NCBI GenBank assembly: GCA_965277075.1
Contig: OZ255707.1
Coordinates: 1,211,338-1,275,337, forward strand
From: Candidatus Lustribacter sp.
GTDB lineage: Bacteria > Vulcanimicrobiota > Vulcanimicrobiia > Vulcanimicrobiales > Vulcanimicrobiaceae
Reading direction: 5' to 3'
DNA: 64,000 bases
In this document: positions 29,820 to 46,593 of the stretch, piece after piece
Layout: every line of letters begins with the position of its first letter
How positions within the stretch are numbered: position 1 is the stretch's first letter
Translations under genes and position numbers: made by a program
Notes under the pieces: generated by a model
Database searches by the model: none
Told to the model about the DNA's origin: nothing
What the model saw: the letters and a program-made list of their open reading frames with translations, nothing else

Positions 29820-32800
29820 CGCAGCGCCGGCTCCCCGGCGTGCGCCATCGACTTCCGCGGGGCCGAACGATCGTTCGGCTGTCGACGATTTCGAAAAGAT
29901 ACGTAGAACACCGGCATGAGATAGAGCGTAAAAAATGTCGAGAAAAGCAGACCGCCGATGGTCGCGACGGCGAGCGGCTTTTGCATCTCGCTGCCGGCGC
30001 CAAGGCCGATCGCGAGCGGAACGACACCGAGCAACGATGTGAGCGTCGTCATGATGATCGGACGCATCCGCAAACGGCCCGCGTGAACCATCGCCTCCTC
30101 CGCGGTGCTGCCTTGCGCGACGAGCTTGTCCACTTCGTCGAAGAGCAGGATGCCGTTCTTGACGACCCCGCCGACGAGCAGAATCAAACCCATGAACGAC
30201 GAGACGTTGAGCGGAATGTTGGTGATGCGCAACGCGGCGACCACGCCGAAGAGTGCCAGGGGCACCGACGAAATAACCACGATCGGGATGCGGAACCCAC
30301 GAAATTCAAAAACCATCGTGATGAAGACGAGCAGAATTGCGATGGCGATCGCCGTGCCGAACTCGGCAAATGACTGCCGTTGCAACGCATAGCGACCGCC
30401 ATAGACGAGACGGTATCCGGAAGGCAGCCGCACGTCGCGAAGCGCGGTGCGAATGTCCGCGATCGTTCCGCCGAGGTCGCGGCCGCTCACGTTCGCCGTT
30501 ACGCGAACGATCTGCTCGAGGTTCTCTTCGTTGCGCTCGGTGGTCGATCCGAGCGGAACGATATCAGCCAGCGAACTCAAACTGTAACTCGAACCATTCG
30601 GCGCGACGATCGGCAGCGTTTGCAGATCGCCGAGCGAGACGTCATTCCACGGCACCGCATAACGGACGCGTACCGGAATCGGGATCGGCAGCCGCGGTAT
30701 CGTCGTCGCGACGACGCCGTCGAAGCCGGCGGCAACGGCCGCTGTGAGCGATGTCGTCGTGAACCCCACGCGGCTGCCGGCGAACGGTTTGAGCCGCACG
30801 AGCGTGTTCGGCGTCGAAAAGACGATGCCGTTGAAATCGTCGACGACGCCTCGGACCTTTGCGATGCGGTCGTCGACGTCTTTCGCGATTGATTCCAGTC
30901 GCGTCTCGTCGCTGCCGAGAATTTTGATTTCAATCGTGCCCGGCGTGTTCGAGAGATCGTTGAGCAAGTCTTGAAGTATCTGCGTGATCGTAAATTTGAG
31001 GATCGGGACCTTCGCGCCGACGTCGCCGCGGATGTCGTCAAGAATTTTGTCGACTCCGTCTTTGCGTTTGTCCCGTTCGAGCATCGTCGCGCGAATGTTC
31101 CCCGCGTTCGGAGGAGCGGGAAAGAAGCCCGACGGATCGAGCCCGGTGAGCCGGGCGTATGCGACGACATTGGGATTCGAACCGATAACGCCTTCGACTT
31201 GTTTCAGGGCTCGGTCCGTCTCATCGAGCGACGTCCCCGGCGGCATCGTAAAATTGAACTCGAACGCCCCTTCATCCATCTCCGGCAAGAAGTCACTTCC
31301 AAGACCGCTCCCGATGAGCAACGTAAACGCGAGAATCGCAGCGGCACACCCGAAAGCAACGAGCGGCCTGCGCAGGAGCCACCGAAGGCCCGGCTCGTAA
31401 CGCTGCAAAAGCCAGTCCATCGAACGCGTACCCGGGTGGCGCGCTCGCGCTTGCGGCGTCTTCGGTGCTCGCAAGAAGTACGCCGAGAGCAGCGGCGTGA
31501 TGAACAGCGCGAAGAACAGGGAGAGCGTTAGCGCTGTTGCAAGCGTGACGGAGAGAGCGGAAAAGAACGCACCTGTTATTCCTGAGAGCAGCGCCAGCGG
31601 AGCAAAGACGACGACGGTGGTGACGGTTGATGCGATCATCGGAACCGAAATTTCCGCCATACCGCGCCGGACGGCTTCGAAGCGCTCGACCCCGTCCTGC
31701 AAATGACGGTAGATGTTCTCGACCACGAAGATCGCATCGACGATGACGAGGCCGACACCGATCGCGAGACCGCCGAGCGTCATGAGATTTAAGCCTTGAC
31801 CGAAAAGGCGCATGAAGAAGAACGCGATCGCGATCGTCAGCGGAATGACGGTTGCGGCGACAAGCGTGCTCCGAATCGAACCAAGAAAGAACCACATGAC
31901 GGCGACGGACAGCAGCGTCCCGAGGAGAATCGAATCGCGCAGGCTCCGAACGGAATCGTTCACGAGCGTCGCCTGATTCCAATACGGGACGATCGAGGCG
32001 CCCGCACCGAGCGTTTGCGTCTCTTTCTGAAGCGCTGCACTGACGTCGCGATCGATCTGCGAGACGTTACCGCCGGGTTGTGCATAGACGTTGAGCAGGA
32101 CGGCGTCGCGGCCCCCGGATGAGACGAGCGACGTTCTCAGCTCGAGCGCATCGTGGACGGTCGCAACATCACCAACGGTAATGGGTGTCCCCTTGCGGTT
32201 TTCGACGACGATTTTTGCGACGTCTTCGGGGGACCGAGGTCCGCCGCTCACGAGCACGATTTGGCTCTGATGAAACCCGTTGAAATGACCGACCGATGTC
32301 ACCGCGTTATCGGCGGCAATCGCCGAAGAGAGCTTGTCGATGTCGATCCCGCGCGATGCCGCTTGCTGCGGCTCGACGGAAACCCAGTACTCGGGACGGC
32401 GGCCGCCGACCACACGAACCTGCGCAACGCCGTCGATTCCCGTTAGCGCCGGCTTGACCGTGAATTCCGCGAGCCGGCGAATCTCTGCCGTGCTCTTCCC
32501 GGCAACCGCAACCGTGTAGCCGAAAACAGGAAAGATATTCGGATTAACATATTGCGCCTGCACGTCCGTACCGGGCGGCAGCGTTGCCCGCGCATCGGAG
32601 ACGACGGAATTAACGCGCTGCAGATCGACGTTGACATCGATCGACGGGTCGAAGGTGATGGAAACAAGGCTCGATCCCTGCGCGGAATTCGATTGAACGA
32701 GCTTGACGCCGACGATCGTCGAAACTGCCAGCTCGATCGGCCGCGTGATGTTCTGCTGCACCTGTTCCGGCGGCATCTGCCCGGCTTGCGCGACCACGAC

Positions 32801-32935
32801 GACGCGCGCGAACGATATACGCGGATAGATCGACATGGGAAGCTGGCCGACCGACATGAGTCCGAGGGCGACGAAAACGGCGAGCGCGACGAGCAAACCG
32901 CGAGCGTTGCGCAAAGCGAAGTCGGCAAAGGCCAA
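29816..32935 (-). CDS. RND efflux permease (AcrB/CusA/CzcA superfamily)
   Basis: 1039 aa with a 12-TM plus two-large-loop layout. A TTG start is preceded by GGAG. The substrate class is not decidable by eye. Confidence 0.9.
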   Translation of the reverse strand: MAFADFALRNARGLLVALAVFVALGLMSVGQLPMSIYPRISFARVVVVAQAGQMPPEQVQQNITRPIELAVSTIVGVKLVQSNSAQGSSLVSITFDPSIDVNVDLQRVNSVVSDARATLPPGTDVQAQYVNPNIFPVFGYTVAVAGKSTAEIRRLAEFTVKPALTGIDGVAQVRVVGGRRPEYWVSVEPQQAASRGIDIDKLSSAIAADNAVTSVGHFNGFHQSQIVLVSGGPRSPEDVAKIVVENRKGTPITVGDVATVHDALELRTSLVSSGGRDAVLLNVYAQPGGNVSQIDRDVSAALQKETQTLGAGASIVPYWNQATLVNDSVRSLRDSILLGTLLSVAVMWFFLGSIRSTLVAATVIPLTIAIAFFFMRLFGQGLNLMTLGGLAIGVGLVIVDAIFVVENIYRHLQDGVERFEAVRRGMAEISVPMIASTVTTVVVFAPLALLSGITGAFFSALSVTLATALTLSLFFALFITPLLSAYFLRAPKTPQARARHPGTRSMDWLLQRYEPGLRWLLRRPLVAFGCAAAILAFTLLIGSGLGSDFLPEMDEGAFEFNFTMPPGTSLDETDRALKQVEGVIGSNPNVVAYARLTGLDPSGFFPAPPNAGNIRATMLERDKRKDGVDKILDDIRGDVGAKVPILKFTITQILQDLLNDLSNTPGTIEIKILGSDETRLESIAKDVDDRIAKVRGVVDDFNGIVFSTPNTLVRLKPFAGSRVGFTTTSLTAAVAAGFDGVVATTIPRLPIPIPVRVRYAVPWNDVSLGDLQTLPIVAPNGSSYSLSSLADIVPLGSTTERNEENLEQIVRVTANVSGRDLGGTIADIRTALRDVRLPSGYRLVYGGRYALQRQSFAEFGTAIAIAILLVFITMVFEFRGFRIPIVVISSVPLALFGVVAALRITNIPLNVSSFMGLILLVGGVVKNGILLFDEVDKLVAQGSTAEEAMVHAGRLRMRPIIMTTLTSLLGVVPLAIGLGAGSEMQKPLAVATIGGLLFSTFFTLYLMPVFYVSFRNRRQPNDRSAPRKSMAHAGEPALR

Positions 32936-32966
32936 AGAAGCTCCAACGGGCGGACAGCAGCCCAGT

Positions 32967-32981
32967 ACTACATCGTGTAGT
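32967..32981. promoter_or_regulatory. BlaI/CopY-type operator candidate (ACTACA-TCG-TGTAGT)
   Basis: Perfect 6-3-6 palindrome containing the TACA...TGTA dyad. It lies 32-46 nt upstream of the RND start codon and downstream of the blaR1-like gene. Confidence 0.5.
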
Positions 32982-33038
32982 TACAAACGGAGGTTGATGT
33001 TCCTGTGCTTCGCGCGTGCAGCTAGTGCCCTGGATGAC

Positions 33039-33824
33039 TTAGCAGTGATGCGATCTGAGATACGGCAGATCGTGCATGAAGTCGGCGTGTGAGATGGCTA
33101 ACGCGATAAAGAACGCGATCACCGCTGCCGGCGCGGCGACGTTCATGAAGGGCGACGGACGCCGTTCCGCCCGACCGTCGTTACACAGGACATGTCGATC
33201 GCGAGCGCGCCGCGTAAGGAGCCGCTCGTACACGAGCGGATCGCCGCTCCCGGCGACCTCGACGTTCGCTCGGATTTCTCGTCGTAGGCGAAGCGTGCGT
33301 TCAAGACTCGTGAAGCCGGGGAGCAATAACGCCGAGAAAAGGATGTGCCAGAACAGGTTCCATGCGGCATCACGATTGCGAACGTGCACCATCTCGTGCC
33401 GCGCCACAAGCCTGAACTCGAGGCCGTCGAGGTCCTCGATGAAACCGCGCGAGACGAATATCTTCGCTCGGAGGATGCCCGACGCCGTAAAGCAGATCGA
33501 TGCTGCGGCCTCCAGATAAACGATCTCCGGCGGACGCACCGCCGCCCGTTGCGCCTCGTGACGGAAAGCCTCGTTCAGCTGCGACGGCGGTTCGCTCGAC
33601 AGAGCCGAAAGCAGCGCGAGCCTGTTTCGTACGAGTCCGATTTGAACGACCACCGCGCCCATCGAAAGCAGGGCGGCGCCAAGCACGAGTTGCGGCAAGA
33701 TGCGGTGCAACGCGAGAATGCCGTGGTACATCGGATCCATCGGCGCAAACCAGCAGAAGCGATCGGCGATAAGTGAAAGCGGGAACAGAAAAATGAGGAG
33801 CGAGAGCCAAACGTACCGGCGCAC
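33039..33824 (-). CDS. M56 family (BlaR1/MecR1-like) membrane metallopeptidase, no sensor domain
   Basis: 261 aa with several TM helices and HEMVHVRNRD (HEXXH). Confidence 0.75.
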   Translation of the reverse strand: MRRYVWLSLLIFLFPLSLIADRFCWFAPMDPMYHGILALHRILPQLVLGAALLSMGAVVVQIGLVRNRLALLSALSSEPPSQLNEAFRHEAQRAAVRPPEIVYLEAAASICFTASGILRAKIFVSRGFIEDLDGLEFRLVARHEMVHVRNRDAAWNLFWHILFSALLLPGFTSLERTLRLRREIRANVEVAGSGDPLVYERLLTRRARDRHVLCNDGRAERRPSPFMNVAAPAAVIAFFIALAISHADFMHDLPYLRSHHC

Positions 33825-33832
33825 GCGAATCC

Positions 33833-34264
33833 TCAGGAGGCACGCCGTCGCCGTTTTGGCAGCAGCCGCAACATCGTCTCGAGGGCAGCCTCGTCACTCG
33901 CGATCGCATCGACAAAGCCGTGGATCGCGGCCTGACCATGCTCATCGAGCAGCCCGGCAATGACGTCTCCAACGACGCGATTGACGAATTGCTCCCGACT
34001 CAACGCGGCCGCGTAGCACGTGTCCCGGTGCACACCGCTCTTTTTGACCAAGCCCTTCTTCTGGAGACGCAGCAGCTCGGTCGAAATCGTCGTGTACGCG
34101 ACCGGCGCACGCGCGTCGAGGTCGCGTGCGATCGCATGGAGCGAGCCGCCACCGCTCGACCACAAGTGCTCCATGATGCGCGACTGCAGCTCGCCGAGGG
34201 CCTGAGCGGACCCCTTCGCGCGCGGCCGAAACGCAATCGGTCCTCGAAACTTCATCCCACCCAT
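33833..34264 (-). CDS. BlaI/MecI/CopY family transcriptional repressor
   Basis: Winged-helix N-domain (LGELQSRIMEHLWSSGGGSLHAIARDLDARAPVAYTTISTELLRLQKKGLVKK) and a dimerisation C-terminus. Confidence 0.85.
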   Translation of the reverse strand: MGGMKFRGPIAFRPRAKGSAQALGELQSRIMEHLWSSGGGSLHAIARDLDARAPVAYTTISTELLRLQKKGLVKKSGVHRDTCYAAALSREQFVNRVVGDVIAGLLDEHGQAAIHGFVDAIASDEAALETMLRLLPKRRRRAS

Positions 34265-34696: not shown

Positions 34697-35158
34697 TCAG
34701 CTACTCTTCGTGAGTTGGTTACGAAAGGTCATACCGACGCGCTCCATGAGTGCAATCGATGCAGCATTATCACGGCGCGCCACCCCCCAGATCTCCGAAG
34801 CGCCGTCGACGACGAACGCCCGCTCAAGAACGGCGCGTGCCGCCTCCGTGCCGTACCCGCGGCGCCGCAACGCACGATCGATCAGCCAATCCGCCTCGAA
34901 CCGTTGACGCGGACGGTGATGACGGACACCAGCGTGCCCGATCACCCGGTCCGTTGCCGCTTCAACCACGGCATAATTTCCAAATCCGAAGTCGTCCGGC
35001 GTAAACGTCGATCCGTTGCCGAAATACCGCATGGTCTCCGCGTCACCGTAGATGCCGACGATCGCTCCGGCATCCGCAATCTCCCAACGCCGAAGAAGAA
35101 GGCGTGGCGTGGTGGCGACGATCATGATTGCGACGTAAGCCACCTTGCTGATGGACAA
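34697..35158 (-). CDS. GNAT family N-acetyltransferase (RimJ/RimL-like)
   Basis: TPRLLLRRWEIADAGAIVGIYGDAETMRYF...ADWLIDRALRRRGYGTEAARAVLERAF...NAASIALMERVGM. The start may be 35125. Confidence 0.65.
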   Translation of the reverse strand: MSISKVAYVAIMIVATTPRLLLRRWEIADAGAIVGIYGDAETMRYFGNGSTFTPDDFGFGNYAVVEAATDRVIGHAGVRHHRPRQRFEADWLIDRALRRRGYGTEAARAVLERAFVVDGASEIWGVARRDNAASIALMERVGMTFRNQLTKSS

Positions 35159-35183
35159 CGCATCTCTGTGCCATGGTGACGAG

Positions 35184-37412
35184 ATGAAATATCAACCAGC
35201 GCGCCGCCTCGGCTCGATCGCACGCGACGAGCGGATTCGCTGTATTCTCGTGTTTCTGTGCGCGTTTGTCGCGTTGGTCGCAACCGCACGCTCGGCGCCG
35301 GCCGCCGAGGCCGGCGGCCCGAGGCACTTTTTGGGCGATCGCTACGTGCGGACACGCATTCTTCCCGAGTCCGGAACGGTCGCGCGGGGTGGTTCGACAT
35401 CACTCGCGATCGAGTTCACCACGTCCCCAGGTTGGCACATTTACTGGCGTAATCCGGGCGACGCCGGCGGTCCCCCGGAAAGTAAGTGGACGCTCGCGCA
35501 TGGCATCTCGGTGGGTCCGACGATGTGGCCGACGCCCGATCGGCGGACGGACGCCGGGATCACGACGTACGTCTACACCGGTCGGACCACGCTGCTCGTT
35601 CCCCTCGACATCGCCCGCGACGCACATCTCGGTACGACGGCCCTGCACGCTGATCTTACGTGGCTGGTTTGTTCGAATGTCTGCGTTCCGGGAAGCGGAA
35701 AGGCCAGCGCCAACGTAGTGATCGCCGATAACGCGACGTTGCCTGATCCACGGAACGACAGCCTCTTCGCCGCTGCACGCGCGCGTCTGCCGCTGCAGGC
35801 GAATTTCGAATCGACTTTCACGGCAAGCCATGGCTCCTTGCGCATTGCGGAGCCGCGCGCACCCTTCGGTGAGCGTCTGACCGACGCGTACTTCTTTCCG
35901 CTCGACCCGAACCTCATCGCCCAATCTTCTCCGCAACGGCTCACGACCGACGGTACGCTGACGCTAACGCTGCAGCTCAAAAACGCGCAAGACGGCGCGC
36001 CGCGGCAGATCGACGGTGTGCTGGCGATCAAATCGATCGATGCCGTCGGGCATCGCCAATTTCGTGGCTACGCTATCAACGCTGTGCCTGCGTCGATCGC
36101 GCAAGTGACCGCGCCACGATCGCTCGTTGCAGCGCTGGTACTTGCGTTTCTCGGCGGCATCGTTCTCAACGTGATGCCCTGCGTGTTTCCCGTCCTTTCG
36201 TTCAAAGCGCTTGGCGCCATCAAAGAGGTCGATCCACGTCAGCGCTGGTCACGAGCGACGTCTTACGCGCTCGGCGTCATCGGAAGCTGCTTAACCCTGG
36301 GCGTGCTCCTGCTCGCGCTGCGCGGCGGCGGCCAGGCGATCGGATGGGGATTCCAATATCAGTCGCCACTTTTCGTCGCACTGCTCACGCTGCTGCTGCT
36401 CGCGCTCGCACTCTCGATGTCGGGCGTCGCGGAGTTCGTCATCCCGCTGCCCGGCCCGCTCGCTCACCGCAACGGCGGTAACGGGAACGTTACAGCGTTC
36501 GTCGACGGTGCCCTCGTAACGCTGATCGCATCTGCGTGCACCGCTCCCTTTATGGGCGCGGCGTTGGGCTTTGCTTTAACCGCGAGCGGTCCCGCCGGCT
36601 TGAGCGTCTTTGCAGCGCTCGGTCTCGGCCTTGCCCTGCCCTACGTCATCGTGACGGGTGTTCCCGCGATCGCCGCGCGGCTGCCGAAACCGGGCAGGTG
36701 GATGGTCTTAGCGCAACGCCTTTTTGCCTTTCCGCTTTATGCTACGGTCGCGTGGCTCGTTTGGGTCTTTTCTCAGGAAGTCGACGGCGGCTCTCTGTTT
36801 TCGTTGCTGATCGCGCTCGTCTGTGTCGGCTTCGCCGTCTCGGCGTACGGCGCGTCGGCCGATCTCGGGCGAGTTTGGCGGCGGGCGTTCGTTCTGCTGA
36901 GCATCGTGGCTTTCGCTGCGGCGATCGCAATCGTCGCGCCGGTCAACGCGATGCAGCATAGCGCGAGCAAAGAAGCCAGCTCGACCGAGGTCTTGCATTA
37001 CGAGCCGTTCGCAGCGTCGCGGCTTGCTGCGTTGCGCGCGGCTCATCGTGCCGTGCTGGTCAACGTCACCGCGGCATGGTGCATCACCTGTCAGGTCAAC
37101 GATCGCCTTGCGCTCGGGCGGCCGGAGGTGCTGGAGCGATTCGCCGCCCAGCACGTCACACTTTTGCGGGCTGACTGGACGAATCAAGATGCGCGGATTA
37201 CCGAGTATCTGCAGCAGTTCGGTCGTAGCGGCGTTCCACTCTACGTGTACTATGCGGCTGACGGCAACGTTGACGTTTGGCCGCAACTCCTCACGCCGAG
37301 CCTTGTCCTCGAGCGGCTGGAACACCATCATGTCGTTGCCCTCAGCGCGCGCTTGTCACAAGACGCGTATCTTCATGCGTTATCCCAAGGCACCCCCACG
37401 GCTGATCAATAG
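35184..37412 (+). CDS. DsbD/ScsB-family thiol:disulfide reductase (N-terminal DsbD-alpha-like, DsbD_2 TM core, C-terminal thioredoxin)
   Basis: The start is at the MKYQPARR Met. Contains [16 protein letters not shown]...[10 protein letters not shown], a TM core with [10 protein letters not shown] and SACTAPF, and the C-terminal motif [10 protein letters not shown]. Confidence 0.85.
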
Positions 37413-37820
37413 GTCGATCGCATCGGTATATGACTGTTTGCCGCGGCCGGCGATCTGTGCGATGCAGACATCGGCAATCGTCGAGATACGGCGGAACGGC
37501 TCGCGTTCCTCAACGTTGCTGAGATGCACTTCGACGGTCGGAACGCGGACGGCGGCGATGCAATCGCGCAGCGCATACGACGTATGCCCGTACGCGCCGG
37601 GGTTGATCACCATACCGGCGGCCCATTGTCGCGCGCCCTGTATGCGGTCGATCAGCCGCCCTTCGTGATTCGATTGATAGCAGCGTACGCGCACGCCCTT
37701 GCTGCGAGCGTAATCGGCGACGTGCGCGTCGAGTTGCGCGAGCGTCAGCGTTCCATAGATTTCCGGTTCGCGTTCGCCGAGCAGGTTGAGATTCGGGCCA
37801 TGAACGACGAAAATCGTCAC
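37380..37820 (-). CDS. aroQ: Type II 3-dehydroquinate dehydratase
   Basis: [23 protein letters not shown]...[11 protein letters not shown]...[16 protein letters not shown]...VEVHLSN. Confidence 0.93.
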
Positions 37821-38893
37821 GCGATGGCGGCGAGGGCACGGCGTAACGAGCGTTCGTCGACGTCGTCGACGAACGCTGCACCGGCGAGATCGCTGATCAC
37901 GATGAACCGCACGCGGCCGGCCTTGCGCTTCTTGTCCGATGCGGTCGCCGCGATGACCGTATCGGGCTCCGGATGGACGGGAGGCGTCGGAATCGCACGG
38001 ACGAGACGATCGATACGATCGGCGAGCTGCGCGTCCAGACCGCGCTCACGCGAAAGTGCGATCGCGGCGCGCATGCCGAGCGTGACGGCTTCGCCATGGC
38101 GCAGCGTGCCGTAGCCGCACGCTTTTTCGAGCGCGTGTCCGAACGTGTGGCCAAAGTTCAACACGGCGCGCCCGCCGGTCTCGTCGCGCTCGCGCTCGTC
38201 GGCTGCGACGACGCGAGCTTTCGCAGCGACGCAGCTTGCGACGATCGTCGCGAGCACATCCGGATCGGCCCGCAGCGCACGCGGCAATTCGCGTTCGAGA
38301 TATGCGAACAACGGCGGGTCCGCGACGATCGCCGTCTTCAGCGCTTCCCCGAGACCCGCCGCGAGATCGCGCGGATCGAGGGTCGCGAAGGCAGCCGGAT
38401 CGATCGCGACGAGAACCGGATGATGAAATGCACCGACGAGATTTTTCCCGGCCTCGATGTTGACGGCGGTTTTGCCGCCGACCGACGCGTCGACCGCCGC
38501 CAGCAAGGTCGTCGGCACCGCGCACCAGCGAATGCCGCGCAGGTACGCCGCGGCGACATAGCCCCCGAGGTCCGTCACGGTACCGCCGCCGACGGCGACG
38601 AGCAGCGTGTCGCGGTCGGCGTGCGCCGCGGCGAGCCAATCGAAAAGCAGCGCGGCGTTCGCGATCGTCTTGATCGCCTCGCCGCCCGCGACGCGACGCG
38701 TCGCGACGACGCGTTCGCCGAGCGCCGCGATGATGCGCGCGGCCAGCGGCTCGACGTTCGCGTCGTAGAGTACCGCGAACGCCGGCGCCGGAAGCGATTG
38801 CACCGCTCCGATCGTATCGCCGCCGATCGCGACGTCGTACGACCGCTCGTCGCCGAGATCGACGCGCACGCGCCGCGCGTCGCCCGCGATCAT
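37817..38893 (-). CDS. aroB: 3-dehydroquinate synthase
   Basis: 358 aa. Contains [27 protein letters not shown] and [15 protein letters not shown] overlaps occur on both sides. Confidence 0.92.
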
Positions 38894-39420
38894 ACGCGTT
38901 GCTCCAGCGGACCGGCGCGACGCGCGAGCTCCGCCAGCACGGCCGCCGCGACGAGCCGTGGTGCGGGCGTCGCGCTGATCGTTATGTGCGCCGCGCGATA
39001 ACGCGCCTCGCGGCGAACGGCGAGTTCGCGAAGTCGCGCGAGCGGATCGCCGGCGAGGAGCGGCCGCGACGAAGCGGTCCCGACGCGTGCGGCGAGCGTC
39101 GCAACGGAAGCGTGCAGCCAGACCAGCATCTCCTGTCGGACATCGTCGAACGAATCGTCGTTTTCGAGCGCGCCGCCGCCGAGCGCGATCACGCAGGGAT
39201 CGTCGCGATCGAGCGCGCGCCGAACGGCCGCACGTTCGCGCGCACGGAACGCGGGCTCACCGTCCCGGACGAAAAGTTCGCTGACGCTCGCGCCCGCGTG
39301 CACTTCGACTTCACGGTCGATGTCGACGAACGCACGGCCGAGGTGTTTCGCGATCATCGTACCGACCGTCGACTTTCCCGATCCGGCGGTTCCGCACAAG
39401 ACGATATGCTCAGCGCGCAC
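38890..39420 (-). CDS. aroK: Shikimate kinase
   Basis: Walker A motif CGTAGSGKSTVG plus FVDIDREVE. The start is GTG 39420 or ATG 39438, overlapping the aroC end. Confidence 0.85.
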   Translation of the reverse strand: MRAEHIVLCGTAGSGKSTVGTMIAKHLGRAFVDIDREVEVHAGASVSELFVRDGEPAFRARERAAVRRALDRDDPCVIALGGGALENDDSFDDVRQEMLVWLHASVATLAARVGTASSRPLLAGDPLARLRELAVRREARYRAAHITISATPAPRLVAAAVLAELARRAGPLEQRV

Positions 39421-40582
39421 GGGCCCGCTCTCGCGCATATCCGACGCTCGTGTGCAGCGCATCGATCGTATCGGCGGGATAGGTTTCGAGCACCGCGTCG
39501 GCCAGGACGAGCGCCAGCAACGATTCGCCGATCACGGCTGCCGCCGGGACCGCGCAGACGTCGCTGCGTTCGATGTACGCATTCGTCGCTTCGCCGGAAC
39601 GGAGGTCGACCGAGGGCAGCGGTTTCATCAGCGTTGCGATCGGCTTCATCGCGGCGCGCACGACGACCGGCTGGCCTGTGCTGATGCCGCCCTCGACCCC
39701 GCCGGCGCGATTCGTCCCATAGGTTGCGCGCGCGCCGTCTGTCCCCGGAAAGTACGCATCGTGCACGGCCGACCCCGGCAGCGCCGCACCGCGAAAGCCC
39801 AGCCCGAGCTCGACGCCTTTGATCGCGTTGAGTGCGAGAAACGCTTCGCCGATACGGCCGTCGAGACGGCGGTCCCACTGCGCGTGCGATCCGACGCCGA
39901 TCGGCATTCCGGCGGCAACGACTTCGAAGATGCCGCCCAGCGTATCGCCCGCTTCGCGCGCCGCATCGATCTGAGCGACGATGCGATTCGCCGCGTTCGG
40001 GTCGAGGACGCGCACCGGCGACGCGTCGACGCGTTCGTTGAGCGTGGCGACGTCGCTGTCGAGCGGCGTCTCGTCGACCACTTCGCCGATACGCACGACG
40101 CGGCTCGCAATCGTCACCCCGATCTCGGCGAGTATCCGCCGCGCGATCGCGCCCAGCGCGACACGCATGGCGGTTTCGCGCGCACTCGCACGTTCCAGAA
40201 TGTCGCGCATATCGGGTCGGCTATACTTGATACCGCCGACGAGATCGGTGTGGCCCGGACGCGGAACGTAGACGGCTCGGGCCGCTTCATCGTCGCGCGG
40301 CTCGATCGCCATGATATCGAGCCATTTTTGATGGTCGCGATTTTCGATGAAGAGGGCGATCGGGCTGCCGATCGTTTCACCACGGCGCACGCCGCCGAGA
40401 ATCTTCACCTCGTCGGTTTCGATCTTCATGCGGTTGCCGCGACCGTAGCCCATTTTGCGCCGCACCGAATCGGCGTGAATGTGGTCGAGCGTAAGCTCCA
40501 GACCGGCCGGCACGCCTTCCATGATTCCGGTCAGCGCGGGTCCATGCGATTCACCGGCCGTAAGATAGCGTAACCTGCTCAC
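39410..40582 (-). CDS. aroC: Chorismate synthase
   Basis: The GTG at 40582 (GTGA overlap with the aroE stop) gives VSRLRYLTAGESHGPALTGIMEGVPAGL... Also contains GRSSARETA-like RASARETAMRV. The N-terminal part of the track ORF is a shadow extension. Confidence 0.92.
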   Translation of the reverse strand: MSRLRYLTAGESHGPALTGIMEGVPAGLELTLDHIHADSVRRKMGYGRGNRMKIETDEVKILGGVRRGETIGSPIALFIENRDHQKWLDIMAIEPRDDEAARAVYVPRPGHTDLVGGIKYSRPDMRDILERASARETAMRVALGAIARRILAEIGVTIASRVVRIGEVVDETPLDSDVATLNERVDASPVRVLDPNAANRIVAQIDAAREAGDTLGGIFEVVAAGMPIGVGSHAQWDRRLDGRIGEAFLALNAIKGVELGLGFRGAALPGSAVHDAYFPGTDGARATYGTNRAGGVEGGISTGQPVVVRAAMKPIATLMKPLPSVDLRSGEATNAYIERSDVCAVPAAAVIGESLLALVLADAVLETYPADTIDALHTSVGYARERARAR

Positions 40583-41412
40583 GAAGCCTCCACGAGCGCG
40601 GCGAGTCGCGTTTCGACCGCATCGTCGAGCACGACATCGCCGAACCAACAATGAAACGTCGCGATCGCCTGGGCGACGAGCATCGGCGTACCGTTGATGG
40701 CACGCCGGCCGGCTGACCGCGCAGCCCGGACGAACGGCGTCAGCGACGGTTTGTATTGCAGGTCGATGCACCAGCCGTCCGGCGAGCACGCGTTGACCGC
40801 CGACGCGACGGCCGCGCCGTCGCTCGTCGCATTAATCAGAATCGTCGAACCCTCGTCGACGTCGCCGGCGAGCAGCACCGTCGTCCCGACGTCGTGGCGC
40901 AAGTCGGCGATCAAAACGCGCGCATGTTCCGGCGTCCGGTTCTTGACCGTCACACTGGAGGCACCGCCGTGCGCGAGCGCGAGGACCGCCGCCCGTGCGG
41001 CCCCGCCGGCACCGAGCACAGTGGCCGTCGCCCCGCGCGGATCCGCCCCCGCGTATGCCAACAACGACGTCACGCCGCCGACATCGGTGTTCACGGCCGT
41101 CGCGCGGCCGTCGCAAAACACGATCACGTTGGCCGCGCCCACGATGCCGGCGTCCGGCGTCACCTCATCGGCCGCGGCGATCGCACGCGCCTTATGCGGA
41201 GCGGTCACATTCCACCCGTCGTATGTCCCGCGCGCGCGCGCAAATGCCGCTGCAAAATTCGTCGGAGTCAATTCGAGGCGCTCGTAGGTCAGGGGAATAC
41301 CGCTGGCGGCTGAGAGCGCCGCGAAAATCTCGGGCGAACGCGAGTGCGCGATCGGCTGGCCGACGACGGCGAAGCGCTTGACGGCCATCCGCGCGGCCGA
41401 TGCGGTACTCAT
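40579..41412 (-). CDS. aroE: Shikimate dehydrogenase
   Basis: The ATG at 41412 (ATGA overlap with the aroA stop) gives ...RFAVVGQPIAHSRSPEIFAA...WNVTAPHK...NTDVGG...GAGGAARA. Confidence 0.88.
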   Translation of the reverse strand: MSTASAARMAVKRFAVVGQPIAHSRSPEIFAALSAASGIPLTYERLELTPTNFAAAFARARGTYDGWNVTAPHKARAIAAADEVTPDAGIVGAANVIVFCDGRATAVNTDVGGVTSLLAYAGADPRGATATVLGAGGAARAAVLALAHGGASSVTVKNRTPEHARVLIADLRHDVGTTVLLAGDVDEGSTILINATSDGAAVASAVNACSPDGWCIDLQYKPSLTPFVRAARSAGRRAINGTPMLVAQAIATFHCWFGDVVLDDAVETRLAALVEAS

Positions 41413-42689
41413 GCGTCGCACAGCGCTGCGAGATCGGCGAAGAACGTCGGATGCGAAATCGCGACGCACTGCGCGTTGCCGACCGTAACGGCGTCGCTCG
41501 CGCCGAGCGCGGCGATTGCGAAGGCCATCGCAAGACGGTGATCCTCGCAACTGTCGACGCGTCCTCCGCGCAGCCGCGCGCCGCCGCGGACGTCGAAGCC
41601 GTCGCTGACCGTTGCAACGTCGGCACCGAGCACGCGGAGCCCGTCGACGAGCACGGCGATACGATCGCTTTCTTTCACGCGTAACTCGGCCGCGCCGCGC
41701 ACCGTTGTCGTCCCCGTCGCGTACGTCGCGACCACGCCGAGCAGCGGCAGTTCGTCGACGATCGCCGGAACGTCCGCTTCGCCGATCGCGATCGCACCCA
41801 GCGGCCGTTGCCGTACTTCGATGCGACCCATCGGTTCCGGATCGTTGCGTTCGACAACGACCGTGACGTCGGCACCCATACGTTCGAGCGCGGCGACGAA
41901 CCCGAGGCGCGTCGGATTGAGGTTGACGTCACGCACGACGATGCGGCTGCCGGGTACGATCGCGGCCGCCGCAAGCCAGAACGCGGCCGCCGACGGATCG
42001 CCCGGAACGTGCACGTCGGCGGCGTGGAGTGCTTGCGGCCCATCGATGACGATGACGTCGCGCTCGTCCCGCCGCACCGCGACGCCGAACTTCGGCAACA
42101 GGCGCAGCGTGTGGTCGCGCGCGTTGCCGCTGCCGGCGATCGTGGTGCGGCCGCTCGCACCGGTTGCCGCCAGGGTGAGCGAACTCGCGACCTGCGCGCT
42201 CGCAACGCGCATCTGAATCGCGCTGCCGTGTAACGCGTGCCCGCCGCGTACGTGCACCGGTGCGTTGCCCGCTTCGGTGTCGATCGCGGCTCCGAGTTCG
42301 GCCAGGGGATCTGCGACGCGCCGCATCGGACGCCGGCGCAGCGAGTCGTCGCCGTCGAGCGTTGCGGCGACGCCGCGTCCGGCGATGGCGCCCATCAACA
42401 GGCGCATCGTGGTTCCCGAATTGCCGCAATCGAGCGCGGCGGCCGGCGTCCGCCAGGCTCCGCCCCGAATTCGCACATCGCCGTTCGTGCGCACGACGTG
42501 TGCGCCGAGTGCAGCGACACACGCCATCGACGACGCGACGTCGGCGCCCGGCGCAACGTTGGTTATGTGCGACTCGCCTTCGCCCAACGCGGCGAAAATC
42601 ACGGCGCGGTGCGAAATCGATTTGTCGCCCGGAACGCGCGGCGCTTCATCGGCGAGTTTTCCCGCCGGCGCGACGACGTGTGAGCTCAC
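41409..42689 (-). CDS. aroA: 3-phosphoshikimate 1-carboxyvinyltransferase (EPSP synthase)
   Basis: The GTG at 42689 overlaps the upstream TAG. Contains VPGDKSISHRAVIFAAL...DCGNSGTTMRLLMG...RVKESDR...DHRLAMAFAIAAL. Confidence 0.92.
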   Translation of the reverse strand: MSSHVVAPAGKLADEAPRVPGDKSISHRAVIFAALGEGESHITNVAPGADVASSMACVAALGAHVVRTNGDVRIRGGAWRTPAAALDCGNSGTTMRLLMGAIAGRGVAATLDGDDSLRRRPMRRVADPLAELGAAIDTEAGNAPVHVRGGHALHGSAIQMRVASAQVASSLTLAATGASGRTTIAGSGNARDHTLRLLPKFGVAVRRDERDVIVIDGPQALHAADVHVPGDPSAAAFWLAAAAIVPGSRIVVRDVNLNPTRLGFVAALERMGADVTVVVERNDPEPMGRIEVRQRPLGAIAIGEADVPAIVDELPLLGVVATYATGTTTVRGAAELRVKESDRIAVLVDGLRVLGADVATVSDGFDVRGGARLRGGRVDSCEDHRLAMAFAIAALGASDAVTVGNAQCVAISHPTFFADLAALCDA

Positions 42690-44485
42690 TATTCGGCGTT
42701 CTCCTGGACCAGCGGGATCGCCGCCAGATCTGCAACGATCTGCTCGAAGTCCGCGAAGGTGAGCGCCTGTTCCGCGTCGCTCTTCGCGACGGCCGGATTC
42801 GGATGCACTTCGATCAAGATGCCGTTGGCCCCGACGGCTTTCGCCGCGCGGCACAACGGCCGGATCCAGCGCCGCACACCGACACCGTGCGACGGATCGA
42901 CCATGATCGGAAGATGCGTGCGTTCGCGAAGCACGGGCACGGCTGAGAGATCGAGCGTATTGCGCGTCGCGGTCTCAAACGTGCGAATACCGCGCTCACA
43001 GAGGACGACGTCGGGGTTGCCTTCCGCGAGGATATATTCCGCAGCACTGAGCAACTCGTCGATGCTCGCCGACATGCCGCGTTTGAGCAGCACCGGTTTC
43101 TGGGTCTTACCGACCGCTTTGAGCAAGTCGAAATTCTGCATGTTACGCGCGCCGATTTGGAACATGTCGACCGACGACTCCATGCGCTCGACCTGATCGA
43201 TGCTCATCACCTCGCTCACGATCGGCAGCCCGCTTTCACGTCCCGCCTCCGCCAAGAGCGCGAGACCATCCCAACCGAGCCCCTGGAACGCGTACGGCGA
43301 CGTGCGTGGTTTGAACGCACCGCCGCGCATCAGGACCGCGCCGTGCTCGGCGATCTCGTGCGCAACCGCGAGCACCTGTTCGCGTGACTCGACGCTGCAT
43401 GGGCCGGCCGCGATGATGAACGTGCCGTCTTCGATCACGATGTTCCCGACCTTCACGCGCGAGCGCGGCTGACCGGGTTCGCGCGTCACTTTCGGAAAGT
43501 TTTGCTTCTGCTTGCTCGCGGACGGCACGACGGCCGGCGTGTTATCGACGACGACGTCGATCACGCGGCGAAGGCGCGGCGGTGCTTGGTCCGCATCATA
43601 CGAGCCGATGACGTGCAACGTCGATGTGTCGTTTCGCAGGTCGCGCAGCGCCTGCGCGAAGGCCTCGTCGCGAACGTCGCCGTCGATGTCGGCGTAGAAC
43701 GCGAAGTCGCTCGTTCCGAGCCGCGACTTCGAGTCGAGCTTCGACACGTTGAGTCCGTTCTTGCCGAATGCGTCGAGCGAACGCGCCAGCGCGCCCGGCT
43801 TGTTCGCGACGGCGAACACGAGCGACGTTTTCCGGTGGTCCGTCGATGCGGCCGGTTCGAACTCGCGCGCCACGCCCTGCGCTGCCGGTGCACGGAAGAG
43901 TAGAAAGCGCGTCGTGTTGTCGGGATGATCGGCGATCGTGCCGGCAAGTTCGATCAGGCCGTAGCGTTCCGCCGCTTCGCGCGAGCAGATCGCCGCATGT
44001 GCCGGATTCTTCGCTGCGGCCACGTCGCGCGCGGCGATCGCGGTGTCGCCGACCGGCACGCGCTTCACGTCCGGCAGCGTCGCGAGGAACCGGCCGCATT
44101 CGGCCAGGACGATCGGATGCGAGGAAACTTCGCGAACGCCGTCGAGCGTCGCACCCGGAAGGCCGACGAGCCGGTGTTCGAGCCGCAAGACGACCTCGGC
44201 CAACGGATCGAGTTCGTATTCGGCGAGCACGTCGTAGCCCTCGCGAATCGTTCCGGCGATCGCGTTGTCGATCGGCAGCAGGCCGACGTCGGCGCGTCCG
44301 GCGAGGACGGCATGGGCGACGGCCCGGAACGACGGAGCGCCGAGCGGCGTGAACGATACGCCGCGGCGCGCCGCATAGCCGTCGAGGACGACGTGCGAGT
44401 ACGCGCCTTCAATGCCCTCGAACGCGGCGGTCAGCGTAAGGTGCGGGGCGTCTGCGATCCGGGCATCAGTGGCGGCGGTGGTCAT
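42689..44485 (-). CDS. Fusion protein: prephenate dehydratase + ACT domain + type Ibeta 3-deoxy-7-phosphoheptulonate (DAHP) synthase
   Basis: ATG 44485 is preceded by GGAG. The N-terminal half has PDT motifs (FEGIEGAYSH...LLPIDNAIAGTIREGY...TRFLLF) and an ACT domain (TSLVFAVANKPGALARSLDAFGKNGLNVSKLDSK). A linker follows, then DAHPS (IIAAGPCSVESREQ...LMRGGAFKPRTSPYAFQGLG...LLKRG...VDPSHG). It is one uninterrupted 598-codon frame. Confidence 0.85.
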   Translation of the reverse strand: MTTAATDARIADAPHLTLTAAFEGIEGAYSHVVLDGYAARRGVSFTPLGAPSFRAVAHAVLAGRADVGLLPIDNAIAGTIREGYDVLAEYELDPLAEVVLRLEHRLVGLPGATLDGVREVSSHPIVLAECGRFLATLPDVKRVPVGDTAIAARDVAAAKNPAHAAICSREAAERYGLIELAGTIADHPDNTTRFLLFRAPAAQGVAREFEPAASTDHRKTSLVFAVANKPGALARSLDAFGKNGLNVSKLDSKSRLGTSDFAFYADIDGDVRDEAFAQALRDLRNDTSTLHVIGSYDADQAPPRLRRVIDVVVDNTPAVVPSASKQKQNFPKVTREPGQPRSRVKVGNIVIEDGTFIIAAGPCSVESREQVLAVAHEIAEHGAVLMRGGAFKPRTSPYAFQGLGWDGLALLAEAGRESGLPIVSEVMSIDQVERMESSVDMFQIGARNMQNFDLLKAVGKTQKPVLLKRGMSASIDELLSAAEYILAEGNPDVVLCERGIRTFETATRNTLDLSAVPVLRERTHLPIMVDPSHGVGVRRWIRPLCRAAKAVGANGILIEVHPNPAVAKSDAEQALTFADFEQIVADLAAIPLVQENAE

Positions 44486-44502
44486 CGCGTCTCCATCATC
44501 AT

Positions 44503-44535
44503 AAAAAGAGAAAAACCCCTCGCGCCGGCGAGGGG
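44503..44535 (-). terminator. Intrinsic terminator (attenuator) immediately upstream of the aro operon
   Basis: Minus strand reads CCCCTCGC-CGGC-GCGAGGGG followed by TTTTTCTCTTTTT. It ends about 18 nt before ATG 44485. Confidence 0.7.
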
Positions 44536-44570
44536 CTCTTGCTGCGGTCGTCCGTGGATACGGACCGACG

Positions 44571-44648
44571 TTACGGCAAAGGCACTTCGCGCCGACGCGA
44601 TTGCGGCCGGCTAAAAAAGGCGAAGTAACCATAGTCGTAACGGAGCAT
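44571..44648 (-). CDS. Candidate Tyr/Phe-rich leader peptide (25 aa)
   Basis: ATG CTC CGT TAC GAC TAT GGT TAC TTC GCC TTT TTT AGC CGG CCG CAA TCG CGT CGG CGC GAA GTG CCT TTG CCG TAA translates to MLRYDYGYFAFFSRPQSRRREVPLP. There are 3 Tyr and 3 Phe codons within codons 4-12. Confidence 0.55.
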   Translation of the reverse strand: MLRYDYGYFAFFSRPQSRRREVPLP

Positions 44649-44656
44649 CCAAGCCG

Positions 44657-44686
44657 TTTCTACCACGGCCGCGTTCCGGCTGTCAA
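44657..44686 (-). promoter_or_regulatory. Putative promoter of the aro leader (TTGACA-18-TGgTAGAAA)
   Basis: On the minus strand, TTGACA is at 44686-44681 and an extended -10 (TGGTAGAAA) ends at 44657. The leader ATG follows 8 nt later with no SD, which suggests a leaderless or near-leaderless transcript. Confidence 0.4.
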
Positions 44687-44699
44687 TGTGCGGGCGCGG

Positions 44700-46517
44700 T
44701 CAGGCACTGCCGAGCGCGCGATCGAGGTAGAAGGCAGCGCTGATCAACGCCATGTGCGTGAACGCTTGCGGAAAGTTGCCCATGTGCTCGCCGGCCGTCC
44801 CGGTCTCTTCGGAAAAAAGTCCGAGATGATTCGCGTAGCCGAGCATCTTTTCGAAAAGGTACCGCGCTTTGGGCAAGTCGCCCGACCGCGCCACGCACTC
44901 GACGAACCAGAACGAACACATATTGAACGTTCCCTCGCCTCCGGCGATTCCGTCCGCACCGTCGCTGCCGCGATACCGGAAGACGAGACTGTCATCGGTC
45001 AGCTGGTCCTCGACGGCACGGAGTGTCGAGAGCCAGCGCGGGTCCGTCGGCGCGATGAAACGGACCAGCGGCATCAAGAGGCACGCGGCATCGAGCCGAT
45101 CGCTTCCCTCGGCTTGCACGAATGCGCCCAACGCTTCGTTCCAGAAACGCTCGTGGATGAACTGATAGAGGGCATCGCGTTGCGCGATCCAGGTTTCGAG
45201 CGGAGCCGGTAAGGACCGCTTCATCGCAACGCGCACGGCGCGGTCGAGAGCGACCCAGCACATCACCTTGGTGTGCAACAGACTTGCGCGCTCGCGGCGA
45301 AATTCCCAAATGCCGTCGTCGGGCAAGCTCCAGTTGGCGGCGACCCAATTGACGGTTCGTACGATGCCGTTCCACCCGCGCCAAGAAACCTGCTCGCCGT
45401 ATTTATCGGAGAGATACAACGAGTCCATGAACTCGCCGTAGATATCGATCTGCAGTTGATGTTCGGCTCCGTTGCCGATCCGCACCGGCCGCGAACCGGC
45501 GTATCCGTCGAGATGCGGCAGCTCCATTTCGGAGAGTTCGCTCCCGCCGTCGAGGCGATACACCGCTCGCAGCGTGCCGTCGGAACCCGAGTCTTCGGCG
45601 CGCGCCTGCAGCCAGCGCATGAACGCGTTCGCTTCGTCGACGTACCCGAGCCGCAGGAGCGCGTACACGGTGAAGGCGGAATCCCGCAGCCACGTGTACC
45701 GGTAGTCCCAGTTACGCGTTCCACCGGCGAGTTCGGGCAGGCCGAAGGTCGGCGCCGCCACGACCGAACCGTGGTCGACTGAGGTCAGCAATTTAAGCGT
45801 CAATGCGGATCGGTTGACGACTTCTCGCCACCTGCCGCGGTATGCCGAGCGTCCCGACCACGCACGCCAGAAATCGCACGTCGCCTTGAACGCTTGGGGC
45901 ACGTACTCGGCCGTGACCGCAACGCTTTGCGCGCCGTGCGCGGCGTCCTCGAGGATGAAAAACGCCGTGTCGCCCGCCGGCAGAACGAAGTCCGCCCGTG
46001 ACGCTCCGCCGTCGATCTCGAGCCGGACGTTCGAGCGCAAACGTAGGCGAATTCCACCCGGGCCGCCGGACGTGAAGACGTGCGAACCGTCTTCGGATTC
46101 CAGCCGATGTTCGGCCCGGCCGTAATCGAACGCCGGCGCGCACAGCATATGGAATCGGACGTCGTTGCGCACCGCCTTGATACGCCGAACCAGCCGCGGA
46201 CCACCGTCGGCATCACCGACGCTCATGAAGTCTGATATTTCCGCCACGCCGTCGCGCGAGAGGGCGCGCGTCAACAGCACGTTGGTTTCGTGAAAGTAGA
46301 GCTGCCGTGCCTGCGCGGCGTCGAAAGCGGCCGCTAATTCGAACCGTCCGCCGCGCTCGCGATCGAGCAACGAAGCAAAGATCGACGGACTATCAAATCG
46401 AGGCCAGCAGCAAAAGTCGATGGTTCCGGTCATATCGACAAGGGCGGCCGTTCGCATGTCGCCGACGATTCCGTGGTTCGCGATGGATTGCGACGTCACG
46501 GCAGGGATGTGACGCAC
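44700..46517 (-). CDS. Glycoside hydrolase family 15 (glucoamylase/trehalase-like)
   Basis: 605 aa. Contains ...HGIVGDMRTAALVDMTGTIDFCCWPRFDSPSIFASLLD...NWDYRYTWLRDSAFT...EGTFNMCSFWFVE...GNFPQAFTHMALI. The start is 46517 or GTG 46499. Confidence 0.88.
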   Translation of the reverse strand: MRHIPAVTSQSIANHGIVGDMRTAALVDMTGTIDFCCWPRFDSPSIFASLLDRERGGRFELAAAFDAAQARQLYFHETNVLLTRALSRDGVAEISDFMSVGDADGGPRLVRRIKAVRNDVRFHMLCAPAFDYGRAEHRLESEDGSHVFTSGGPGGIRLRLRSNVRLEIDGGASRADFVLPAGDTAFFILEDAAHGAQSVAVTAEYVPQAFKATCDFWRAWSGRSAYRGRWREVVNRSALTLKLLTSVDHGSVVAAPTFGLPELAGGTRNWDYRYTWLRDSAFTVYALLRLGYVDEANAFMRWLQARAEDSGSDGTLRAVYRLDGGSELSEMELPHLDGYAGSRPVRIGNGAEHQLQIDIYGEFMDSLYLSDKYGEQVSWRGWNGIVRTVNWVAANWSLPDDGIWEFRRERASLLHTKVMCWVALDRAVRVAMKRSLPAPLETWIAQRDALYQFIHERFWNEALGAFVQAEGSDRLDAACLLMPLVRFIAPTDPRWLSTLRAVEDQLTDDSLVFRYRGSDGADGIAGGEGTFNMCSFWFVECVARSGDLPKARYLFEKMLGYANHLGLFSEETGTAGEHMGNFPQAFTHMALISAAFYLDRALGSA

Positions 46518-46547
46518 AAAAAGAAGCCGGTCGCCGAAGCGACCGGC
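46515..46547 (-). terminator. Intrinsic terminator after the HiPIP gene
   Basis: Minus strand reads GCCGGTCGC-TTCG-GCGACCGGC followed by TTCTTTTTGTG, 46 nt after the HiPIP stop. Its U-tract abuts the GH15 start region. Confidence 0.6.
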
Positions 46548-46593
46548 CGCGTGAGTCGGGGCGCGCTAGTGTGCTGTCTTCTGAGACCGCACA

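Follow-up and report, generated by a model that had tools for sequence, protein, structure and literature searches.

Our comparative analyses point to a transcription attenuator like trpL or pheL, mediated by the ribosome through a leader peptide, in a 64,000-nucleotide (nt) stretch of DNA from Candidatus Lustribacter sp. (contig OZ255707.1; the whole stretch is hereafter the window), directly upstream of a gene coding for a fusion of prephenate dehydratase, an ACT domain and 3-deoxy-D-arabino-heptulosonate 7-phosphate (DAHP) synthase (PDT-ACT-DAHPS). Judging from the sequences, we put the probability of this reading at about 0.85. The attenuator is proposed to gate the fusion gene as well as, in this lineage, six downstream shikimate genes. 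It has the four-region anatomy of its class, with the regulatory codons in region 1, alternative pairings 1:2, 2:3 and 3:4, a leader stop codon at or in region 2, and a terminator placed before the Shine-Dalgarno (SD) sequence of the structural gene. An earlier note, made from the letters of the window alone, had described a promoter, a leader open reading frame (ORF), a small hairpin and a terminator in this region, and all of them were read again in the sequence at the places claimed. Coordinates are window positions unless another locus is named, and the leader, aro and leuA features are read on the minus strand. The leader is composed of the following elements:

44681-44686, minus strand: −35 hexamer TTGACA of the leader and operon promoter (direct reading and conservation in relatives)
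44657-44665, minus strand: extended −10-like element TG-g-TAGAAA, separated by an 18-nt spacer from the −35 hexamer and by 8 nt from the leader ATG (direct reading)
44571-44648, minus strand: leader ORF, MLRYDYGYFAFFSRPQSRRREVPLP*, 25 codons plus UAA (direct reading; equivalents in relatives)
44613-44639, minus strand: regulatory codons Tyr4, Tyr6, Tyr8, Phe9, Phe11 and Phe12, the proposed stall zone (direct reading)
44620-44642, minus strand: region 1, the 5' strand of hairpin P1, covering codons 3-10 (pairs of the minimum-free-energy structure; double-sided changes in P1b)
44573-44596, minus strand: region 2, which pairs with region 1 (P1, the anti-antiterminator) or with region 3 (masked folds and pair counts)
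44591-44611, minus strand: P1c, the apical hairpin of P1, whose 3' side (44596-44591) is the start of the antiterminator strand (folds; helix 3)
44547-44569, minus strand: P2, small hairpin GUCG-GUCCG-UAUCC-ACGGAC-GAC, present in both states and located inside the antiterminator loop (folds; covariation)
44524-44545, minus strand: region 3, made up of the terminator 5' arm, the loop (44527-44524) and the 5 nt before the arm, and forming the antiterminator 3' strand (masked folds)
44503-44540, minus strand: intrinsic terminator with a 13-bp stem (44540-44528 with 44523-44511) and loop CGGC at 44527-44524 (direct reading; in relatives)

The attenuator interpretation is supported by comparative data. 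The fusion protein was found at 53 loci of a genome collection, from each of which the DNA 5' of the fusion gene was extracted, and two closer relatives, L054 and L055, were added separately. The best protein matches and the 53 loci belong essentially all to the Eremiobacterota (Vulcanimicrobiota), a few coming from differently labelled bins, and the window is nearest to metagenome-assembled genomes resembling Candidatus Lustribacter. Counting that of the window, this yielded 50 versions of the leader with the aromatic ORF, P1, P2 and the terminator, each directly 5' of a PDT-ACT-DAHPS gene whose product is 67-92% identical to the window's. In about 46 of the 50 usable loci (fusion identity 67-89%) an ATG-initiated ORF of 20-28 codons occupies the same position and carries 5-7 Trp, Tyr or Phe per 10 codons; L054 and L055 possess an equivalent ORF as well. 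Examples among the relatives are MLVNGFGYFGFFSWAISRRRADSLP, MTVAGWSYRYFYASCNAHRRGRPLP, MTVPSWSYRYFYASRSAPAR, MAQYFWFYFYAECAALRRGRPLP, MPVWFYFGFFAQRTAPRRGRPLP and MVKQALTQRFPFFFFADTTARRCGRLSR, and at one locus (L009) the leader starts with GTG. Two loci (L003 and L030) have assembly gaps, and at L051 the upstream DNA is unrelated. The short ORF and its aromatic codons, whose absence from relatives the earlier note would have counted against an attenuator, are thus conserved, and they occur, as that note had supposed of a lineage unlike Enterobacteria, in genomes of a different phylum. A covariance model of the leader finds just one strong match in the 64 kb of the window, at 44499-44648 on the minus strand with 84 bits, and has strong matches in 50 sources in total, every one immediately 5' of the fusion gene. 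The leader accompanies this gene irrespective of the genes flanking it up- or downstream. At one locus (L015, ~2940-3000 of a 3.5-Mb contig) the whole leader is cleanly deleted: the promoter, TTGACG-N-TGGTAAGAC, is joined straight to the SD of the fusion gene (CTTTCCGGAGAGCACGATG), the −35 TTGAC is retained and the covariance model finds no match. By its sequence, this would be a constitutive variant.

In the leader of the window, Tyr or Phe occupies 6 of codons 4-12. The two strands of the window contain 307 ATG-initiated ORFs 15-35 codons long, among which the leader is the sole one with at least 5 aromatics per 10 codons, scoring 6 where the runner-up scores 4. Across the family, Trp, Tyr and Phe make up 24% of the leader peptides versus 5.6% of the neighbouring proteins, and 43 of 46 leaders contain at least one Trp codon. 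The window reads AGC CGG CCG (Ser-Arg-Pro) at 44604-44612 where its closest relatives read AGC TGG TCG (Ser-Trp-Ser):

L054 2883-2891 and L055 2877-2885: Trp-codon site, AGC TGG TCG retained

By this comparison, the Trp codon is present in the family and lost in the window (TGG to CGG), through substitutions that still fit the apical hairpin of P1. Around the aromatic cluster, which is itself kept, residues vary between relatives, and the C-terminal half of the ORF is read in two frames with different stops across almost the same nucleotides: leaders of the 25-codon class end in ..RRGRPLP-UAA and those of the 20-21-codon class in ..APAR-UAG. The two frames and the variable flanks imply that selection maintains the RNA and the reading of its aromatic codons by the ribosome rather than the peptide. 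A C-terminal Pro before the stop codon is a slow-termination context in other bacteria; here it could lengthen the occupancy of region 2 by the ribosome, or merely reflect the G+C-rich stem.

The promoter is similarly conserved. Among 47 related leaders, 45 have a TTGAC motif 37-39 nt 5' of the ATG, and 38 have a hexamer TA[A/C][G/A]A[C], mostly after TGg, that begins 14-15 nt before the ATG; the spacer measures 17-18 nt. An SD-like 4-mer was found in just 2 of the 47. The position of the promoter and the rarity of an SD indicate that the transcript probably begins at the AUG or 1-2 nt before it; the leader transcript is therefore probably leaderless, or with a 5' untranslated region (UTR) of at most 2 nt. 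Promoter spacing and SD rarity thus back the leaderless start that the earlier note had suggested, with a transcription start site (TSS) placed by sequence. A consensus promoter scan did not list the leader promoter, because TAGAAA lacks the final T; the promoter is supported by its conservation instead.

The 165-nt leader folds better than expected from its composition (z = −3.65; 0 of 200 shuffles fold as well). Folds of the individual sequences share one architecture, P1 + P2 + terminator (3:4), which corresponds to the OFF state. P1 is a long interrupted hairpin with an apical sub-hairpin, its 5' strand containing the aromatic codons and its 3' strand being region 2; in the window, 44642-44620 pair with 44590-44570. 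For its P1b segment we found three solutions, in each of which the changes on the two strands compensate one another: ACUUCGC:GCGAAGU (the window, L054 and L055), UCGGCU:AGCCGA (the remaining Lustribacter-like genomes) and CCUACCG:CGGUAGG (the majority). When the OFF structure is projected onto a MAFFT alignment of 46 sequences, 81% of the cells are paired versus 39-47% in slid controls, and 16 pairs have changed on both sides. On a model-fitted alignment of 50 sequences, which leans towards the OFF structure because it was fitted to it, 85% of the cells are paired versus 38-48% in slid controls, 24 of 41 pairs have changed on both sides and 0 of 500 shuffles match the observed values. Double-sided changes affect 8 of 9 P1b pairs in the model-fitted alignment and 5 of 9 in the MAFFT alignment, 5 of 7 pairs in P1c (helix 3), and P2, where UA is replaced by CG in 12 sequences (model-fitted alignment, helices 5-6). 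Duplex statistics by region, those of 2:3 given below included, are crude; the 1:2 duplex has a weak z of −1.4 owing to the use of fixed windows, and we relied on the pair counts instead. MAFFT combined with RNAalifold on 46 leaders recovered the terminator alone, because the 5' half of the leader was not structurally aligned; that result was superseded by the per-sequence folds, the projected structure and the covariance-model alignment.

The terminator hairpin occurs in 46 of 46 sequences, with −19 to −31 kcal/mol and 97-98% of cells paired. In the window its arms are AAGAGCCCCUCGC-CGGC-GCGAGGGGUUUUU (44540-44511, 13 pairs), and the U-rich run UUUUUCUCUUUUU (44515-44503) starts within the 3' arm. 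Past the G/C core, 10 of the next 12 nt are U, compared with a family median of 8 in 12.

The competing ON structure emerged from folds that imitate a stalled ribosome, by masking the RNA to 12 nt past the last aromatic codon, and a nascent transcript, by cutting it before the 3' arm of the terminator. Under both conditions together, the minimum-free-energy structure in 44 of 46 sequences is a long interrupted 2:3 helix of approximately −25 to −36 kcal/mol, which takes up the whole 5' arm of the terminator and encloses P2 (44596-44573 with 44545-44524 in the window). Its cells are paired at 90-91% versus 40-48% in slid controls, and, measured against dinucleotide shuffles, the 2:3 duplex averages z = −2.7 across the family. 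The earlier note had proposed as antiterminator a 10-bp pairing of 44599-44590 with 44530-44521; this pairing exists, but it is only the upper part of the longer 2:3 helix. Region 2 overlaps the last codons of the leader and the first base (44573) of its UAA (44573-44571). Within the family, the stop codon is either UAA, located where region 2 ends on its 3' side, or, in the 20-21-codon leaders, UAG inside region 2. With a ribosome put at the stop codon (the footprint size being assumed), the terminator belongs to the minimum-free-energy structure in 46 of 46 sequences; the unconstrained optimum includes it in 45 of 46.

We infer transcription start, leader translation, stalling and amino-acid response from these sequence features, and they suggest the following cycle. 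Transcription would start within ~2 nt of the leader AUG, and a ribosome would translate the 25-codon leader. With ample charged Tyr-tRNA and Phe-tRNA (and Trp-tRNA in most relatives), it would reach the stop codon and cover region 2, the 3:4 terminator would form and transcription would end at ~44503. If the leader were left untranslated, regions 1 and 2 would pair as P1, again allowing the terminator. When an aromatic aminoacyl-tRNA is scarce, the ribosome would stall on codons 4-12 and cover region 1, leaving region 2 (44596-44573) free to capture region 3 (44545-44524) as it emerges and before region 4 is made; the 5' arm of the terminator would then be sequestered and RNA polymerase would read into the operon. 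P2 probably holds the antiterminator strands close together.

Several observations weigh against this reading. As to the RNA, the terminator is about 10 kcal/mol more stable in all 46 sequences once the full hairpin is available under the stall mask. In the folding with a ribosome mask, which the earlier note had proposed as a check, the antiterminator is optimal in 44 of 46 sequences as long as region 4 is missing, and the terminator wins when it is complete. We therefore reject a thermodynamic switch, the antiterminator not being preferred at equilibrium even with the stall mask. The switch would have to work kinetically, which is normal for the class and is the case for E. coli trpL. Moreover, the 2:3 duplex of the window is unexceptional in its G+C-rich background (z of about −1.9, with 6% of shuffles and 15% of genomic windows as good). 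Across the family the 2:3 helix is nearly invariant, and its support comes from conservation and pairing potential, not from covariation; little covariation is expected because each strand must pair with two partners. Many relatives have a broken U tract, with 5-8 U per 12 nt. As to expression, the −10 element does not end in the usual T, and translation of the leader, in which an SD is lacking, would rest on a leaderless start. As to the codons, the window leader has no Trp codon, and at one locus (L041, 2805-2947) a +1 frameshift (ATGGCCGCTTGCGACC...) puts the aromatic codons out of frame, L041 being the sole relative in which the frame from the start to these codons is not open. The RNA elements of L041 are intact despite the frameshift (covariance model, 147 bits), which represents either an assembly indel or an inactivated sensor.

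Other explanations fare worse than the attenuator. An ordinary intergenic region, made of a terminator for the upstream GH15 gene and a separate aro promoter with the aromatic ORF arising by chance, has in its favour that the hairpin is the only terminator after the GH15 stop (44700), so that GH15 transcripts probably do end there, and that the region as a whole shows no excess of terminator-like sites (10 observed versus 14 expected). However, GH15 lies upstream only in the window, relatives having other upstream genes and the same leader; the promoter is located upstream of the hairpin and not downstream; and the ORF, sole outlier among the short ORFs of the window, is kept with its aromatic codons in ~50 genomes. 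The conservation contradicts this explanation, which we consider extremely unlikely. We find it just as hard to believe that the ORF encodes a functional micro-protein, for instance an aromatic-rich membrane peptide co-expressed with the operon. It is conserved and its first half is hydrophobic or aromatic, but what is conserved is composition rather than sequence, the same nucleotides encode C-terminal halves in two frames with differing stops and lengths, and a terminator follows directly 3' of the ORF.

Somewhat less remote, although still very improbable, is a structured RNA that a protein, tRNA or small ligand recognizes, in the manner of a riboswitch, a T-box or TRAP, and in which the ORF would be incidental. 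In its favour, sequence conservation is high in regions 2-4 and in P2, and P2 has no assigned sensing role. Nevertheless, the dual pairing constraints account for the invariance of regions 2 and 3, the RNA is only ~150 nt long and has no T-box-like specifier, T-loop or GAG/UAG repeats, and the start, frame and aromatic codons of the ORF are kept while its sequence varies, none of which an untranslated RNA needs. An Rfam 15 scan at gathering thresholds found no family in the 64-kb window or in six related loci, and a scan by E-value of 44300-44900 gave sub-threshold matches only, driven by the terminator; the search for Phe_leader and related models that the earlier note had advised thus returned nothing at threshold. 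Finally, the leader might sense aromatic tRNA supply with an output other than intrinsic termination, namely Rho-dependent termination, mRNA stability or translation initiation of the fusion. The broken U tract of many relatives and the terminator hairpin always favoured at equilibrium would suit this possibility, and in the folds of some relatives a weak pairing seems feasible between the SD, GGAG(AG), and CUCUU in the pyrimidine tail. We regard it as unlikely, since the SD lies 16-50 nt past the hairpin and is unsequestered in both main states, the 13-bp G+C-rich stem with its U-rich tail (median 8/12, window 10/12) fits an intrinsic terminator, and the antiterminator specifically uses up the 5' arm of that very hairpin.

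The target of the attenuator and its surroundings in the window comprise the following features:

44700-44702 (TGA at 44702-44700), minus strand: stop codon of the GH15 gene (direct reading)
44483-44494, minus strand: SD GGAG (44494-44491) and ATG (44485-44483) of the first structural gene (direct reading; homologue lengths)
42689-44485, minus strand: target gene, the prephenate dehydratase-ACT-DAHP synthase (type I-beta) fusion (Pfam, PDB sequence search, homologues)
37380-42854, minus strand: aroA, aroE, aroC, aroK, aroB and aroQ, adjoining or overlapping one another and probably forming an operon in this clade (Pfam)

The fusion protein contains a complete prephenate dehydratase with its ACT domain (residues ~20-300) and a type I-beta DAHP synthase (~330-590), a layout kept throughout the phylum, whereas a sequence search of PDB found separate enzymes only, or DAHP synthase joined to other regulatory domains. 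Its ACT domain may give the DAHP synthase feedback control by Phe. We place its start at ATG 44485 because this fits the length of its homologues (595-600 amino acids). The same lengths rule out as gene start an in-frame long ORF from ATG 44632, which runs through the terminator. A mini-ORF, AUGAUGAUGGAGACGCGAUGA (MMMETR*, 44502-44482, minus strand), runs across the SD and the ATG of the fusion gene and was treated as probably incidental, because relatives keep only GAUGGAGACGCGAUG and no conserved frame.

Together with the fusion gene, the six aro genes form a gapless minus-strand array (44485-37380, by Pfam). The earlier note had the attenuator controlling all seven common-pathway steps plus prephenate dehydratase, which would hold for the clade of the window but not elsewhere. 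In the order seen in the window, aroA-aroE-aroC follow the fusion gene in 8 of the 53 collection loci, those of the Lustribacter-like clade (L001-L006 and L045) and L025, as well as in L054 and L055, and these genes were not found adjoining it in the other 45 of the 53 (the majority clade among L007-L053). In two majority-clade loci examined, the fusion gene is followed by unrelated genes, for DUF5666, a class II aldolase and GST (L021) or for LuxR (L017). Since the downstream genes vary, the conserved target is the PDT-ACT-DAHPS gene, and control of a whole shikimate operon is, as gene order indicates, a feature of the Lustribacter-like clade. Upstream, L054, L055 and L001-L006 have hslV-hslU-87-aa ORF and then directly the aro leader, which identifies the GH15/trehalase-like gene of the window (44700-46517) as a lineage-specific insertion. 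GH15 has no terminator of its own before the leader promoter, so its transcripts, too, probably end at the attenuator hairpin. Another strong terminator-like hairpin, GGCCGGTCGC-TTCG-GCGACCGGCT followed by a T run (46525-46548), lies between the 87-aa ORF and GH15.

Attenuation before DAHP synthase genes has precedents. In Corynebacterium glutamicum, aroR is a Phe-Tyr-Phe leader 5' of the aroF (DAHP synthase) operon acting by ribosome-mediated attenuation (PMC11802643, PMC4046766); it was predicted in PMC4046766 and, according to Neshat et al. 2014 as cited in PMC11802643, was reported to respond to Phe and not to Tyr. In Acholeplasma, the uORFC-13-1 motif combines a conserved Phe-codon upstream ORF (uORF) with an intrinsic terminator before aroF, for which attenuation has been proposed (PMC8632094). 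Leaderless leader peptides are documented in Corynebacterium (PMC5784534, PMC11857589). As of 2010, leader peptides were thought to be limited to Proteobacteria and Actinobacteria, with some Firmicutes being added (PMC2965389). No aro leader appears in a survey of RNA regulation in Actinobacteria (PMC1262725) or in a survey of premature terminators (PMC2965389), and a full-text literature search for Eremiobacterota and attenuators, too narrow to prove much, retrieved no paper.

The likeness of our leader to aroR is functional: both have mixed Phe/Tyr codons before a DAHP synthase operon, and attenuation in a high-G+C organism, proposed for ours, is common to them. However, aroR has a single Phe-Tyr-Phe and belongs to another phylum, whereas the leaders described here have 5-7 aromatic codons, usually one Trp among them, and their target is the PDT-ACT-DAHPS fusion and, in this clade, all the common-pathway genes. 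The Acholeplasma motif likewise places an aromatic uORF beside an intrinsic terminator 5' of a DAHP synthase gene, but it is found in A+T-rich Tenericutes, is centred on a conserved Phe instead of a Trp/Tyr/Phe cluster and is unrelated by its description. With E. coli pheL-pheA and trpL-trpEDCBA our leader shares the four-region logic, a stop codon placed to block region 2 and a less stable, kinetic antiterminator. In contrast with these, it has no SD and is probably leaderless, it contains the extra P2 inside the antiterminator loop, its codons are mixed Tyr/Phe(/Trp) and not a run for a single amino acid, and its target is the first common enzyme and not a terminal branch. Multivalent attenuators are exemplified in Enterobacteria by ilvGMEDA (Leu/Val/Ile codons) and thr (Thr/Ile codons). 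The present leader resembles these in that a single leader peptide carries codons for several products of a shared pathway, and differs from them in amino acids, lineage and sequence.

The mechanism proposed is therefore a known one, represented by a new sequence family in a new phylum; what is new is the mixed Trp/Tyr/Phe cluster, the probable leaderless start, the extra hairpin in the antiterminator loop and the unusual fused target. As the mechanism is textbook knowledge, the conceptual gain is modest. We know of no earlier such element in Eremiobacterota, a phylum known mainly from soil and peat metagenome bins (bog, palsa and SPRUCE, by the source names of the assemblies). We lean, by a small margin, towards a more ambitious proposal, in which the leader would constitute a phylum-wide Eremiobacterota/Vulcanimicrobiota RNA family outside Rfam, leaderless and multivalent (a single Trp codon, some three Tyr and 1-5 Phe), that senses all three aromatic aminoacyl-tRNAs and sets transcription of the committed shikimate step. 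In Lustribacter-like genomes its reach would extend to the whole common pathway and to prephenate dehydratase. With the leuA leader described below as a second case, it would make leaderless attenuation a general style of this mostly uncultured phylum. The leader offers a testable model of how aromatic amino-acid synthesis could be matched to tRNA charging, with a single leader serving Tyr, Phe and usually Trp at the first common step. It would also widen the range of leader-peptide attenuation past Proteobacteria, Actinobacteria, some Firmicutes and Acholeplasma, and contributes more likely cases of leaderless leader peptides. The 50-sequence alignment and the covariance model could seed a new RNA family, which would keep annotations from taking the leader for a hypothetical gene or for additional N-terminal sequence of the fusion protein.

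A second candidate attenuator occurs in the window at 18600-18760 (minus strand), 5' of leuA (16897-18588). Its ORF starts at ATG 18733 and contains four Leu codons, with TATACA 7 nt before the ATG and no usable SD. A terminator-like hairpin, GGAGCCCGCCGC-GAAA-GCGACGGGCUCUU, is followed by a U-rich tail, and a modest alternative pairing overlaps the 5' arm of this terminator. The corresponding leaders of relatives at 80% and 68% LeuA identity are MTHQSSVLSLLLLSDTSP and MNGSLRPLALAILLSGTPPA, and Leu-rich leaders were seen in L057, L058 and, at greater distance, many other leuA loci. With the aro covariance model, the leuA leader of the window has a weak full-length match (20.6 bits, E 0.006). 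This leader supports a regular use of leader-peptide attenuation in the lineage and counts in favour of the attenuator reading of the aro leader.

Elsewhere in the window, the region 27241-34264 (minus strand) codes for a BlaI-like repressor (33833-34264) and a BlaR1/M56-like peptidase (33039-33824), adjoined by an AcrB-like RND efflux pump (29816-32935) and a membrane-fusion protein (27241-28512). On the plus strand, a gene for a DsbD-like protein (35145-37412) converges on the end of the aro operon.

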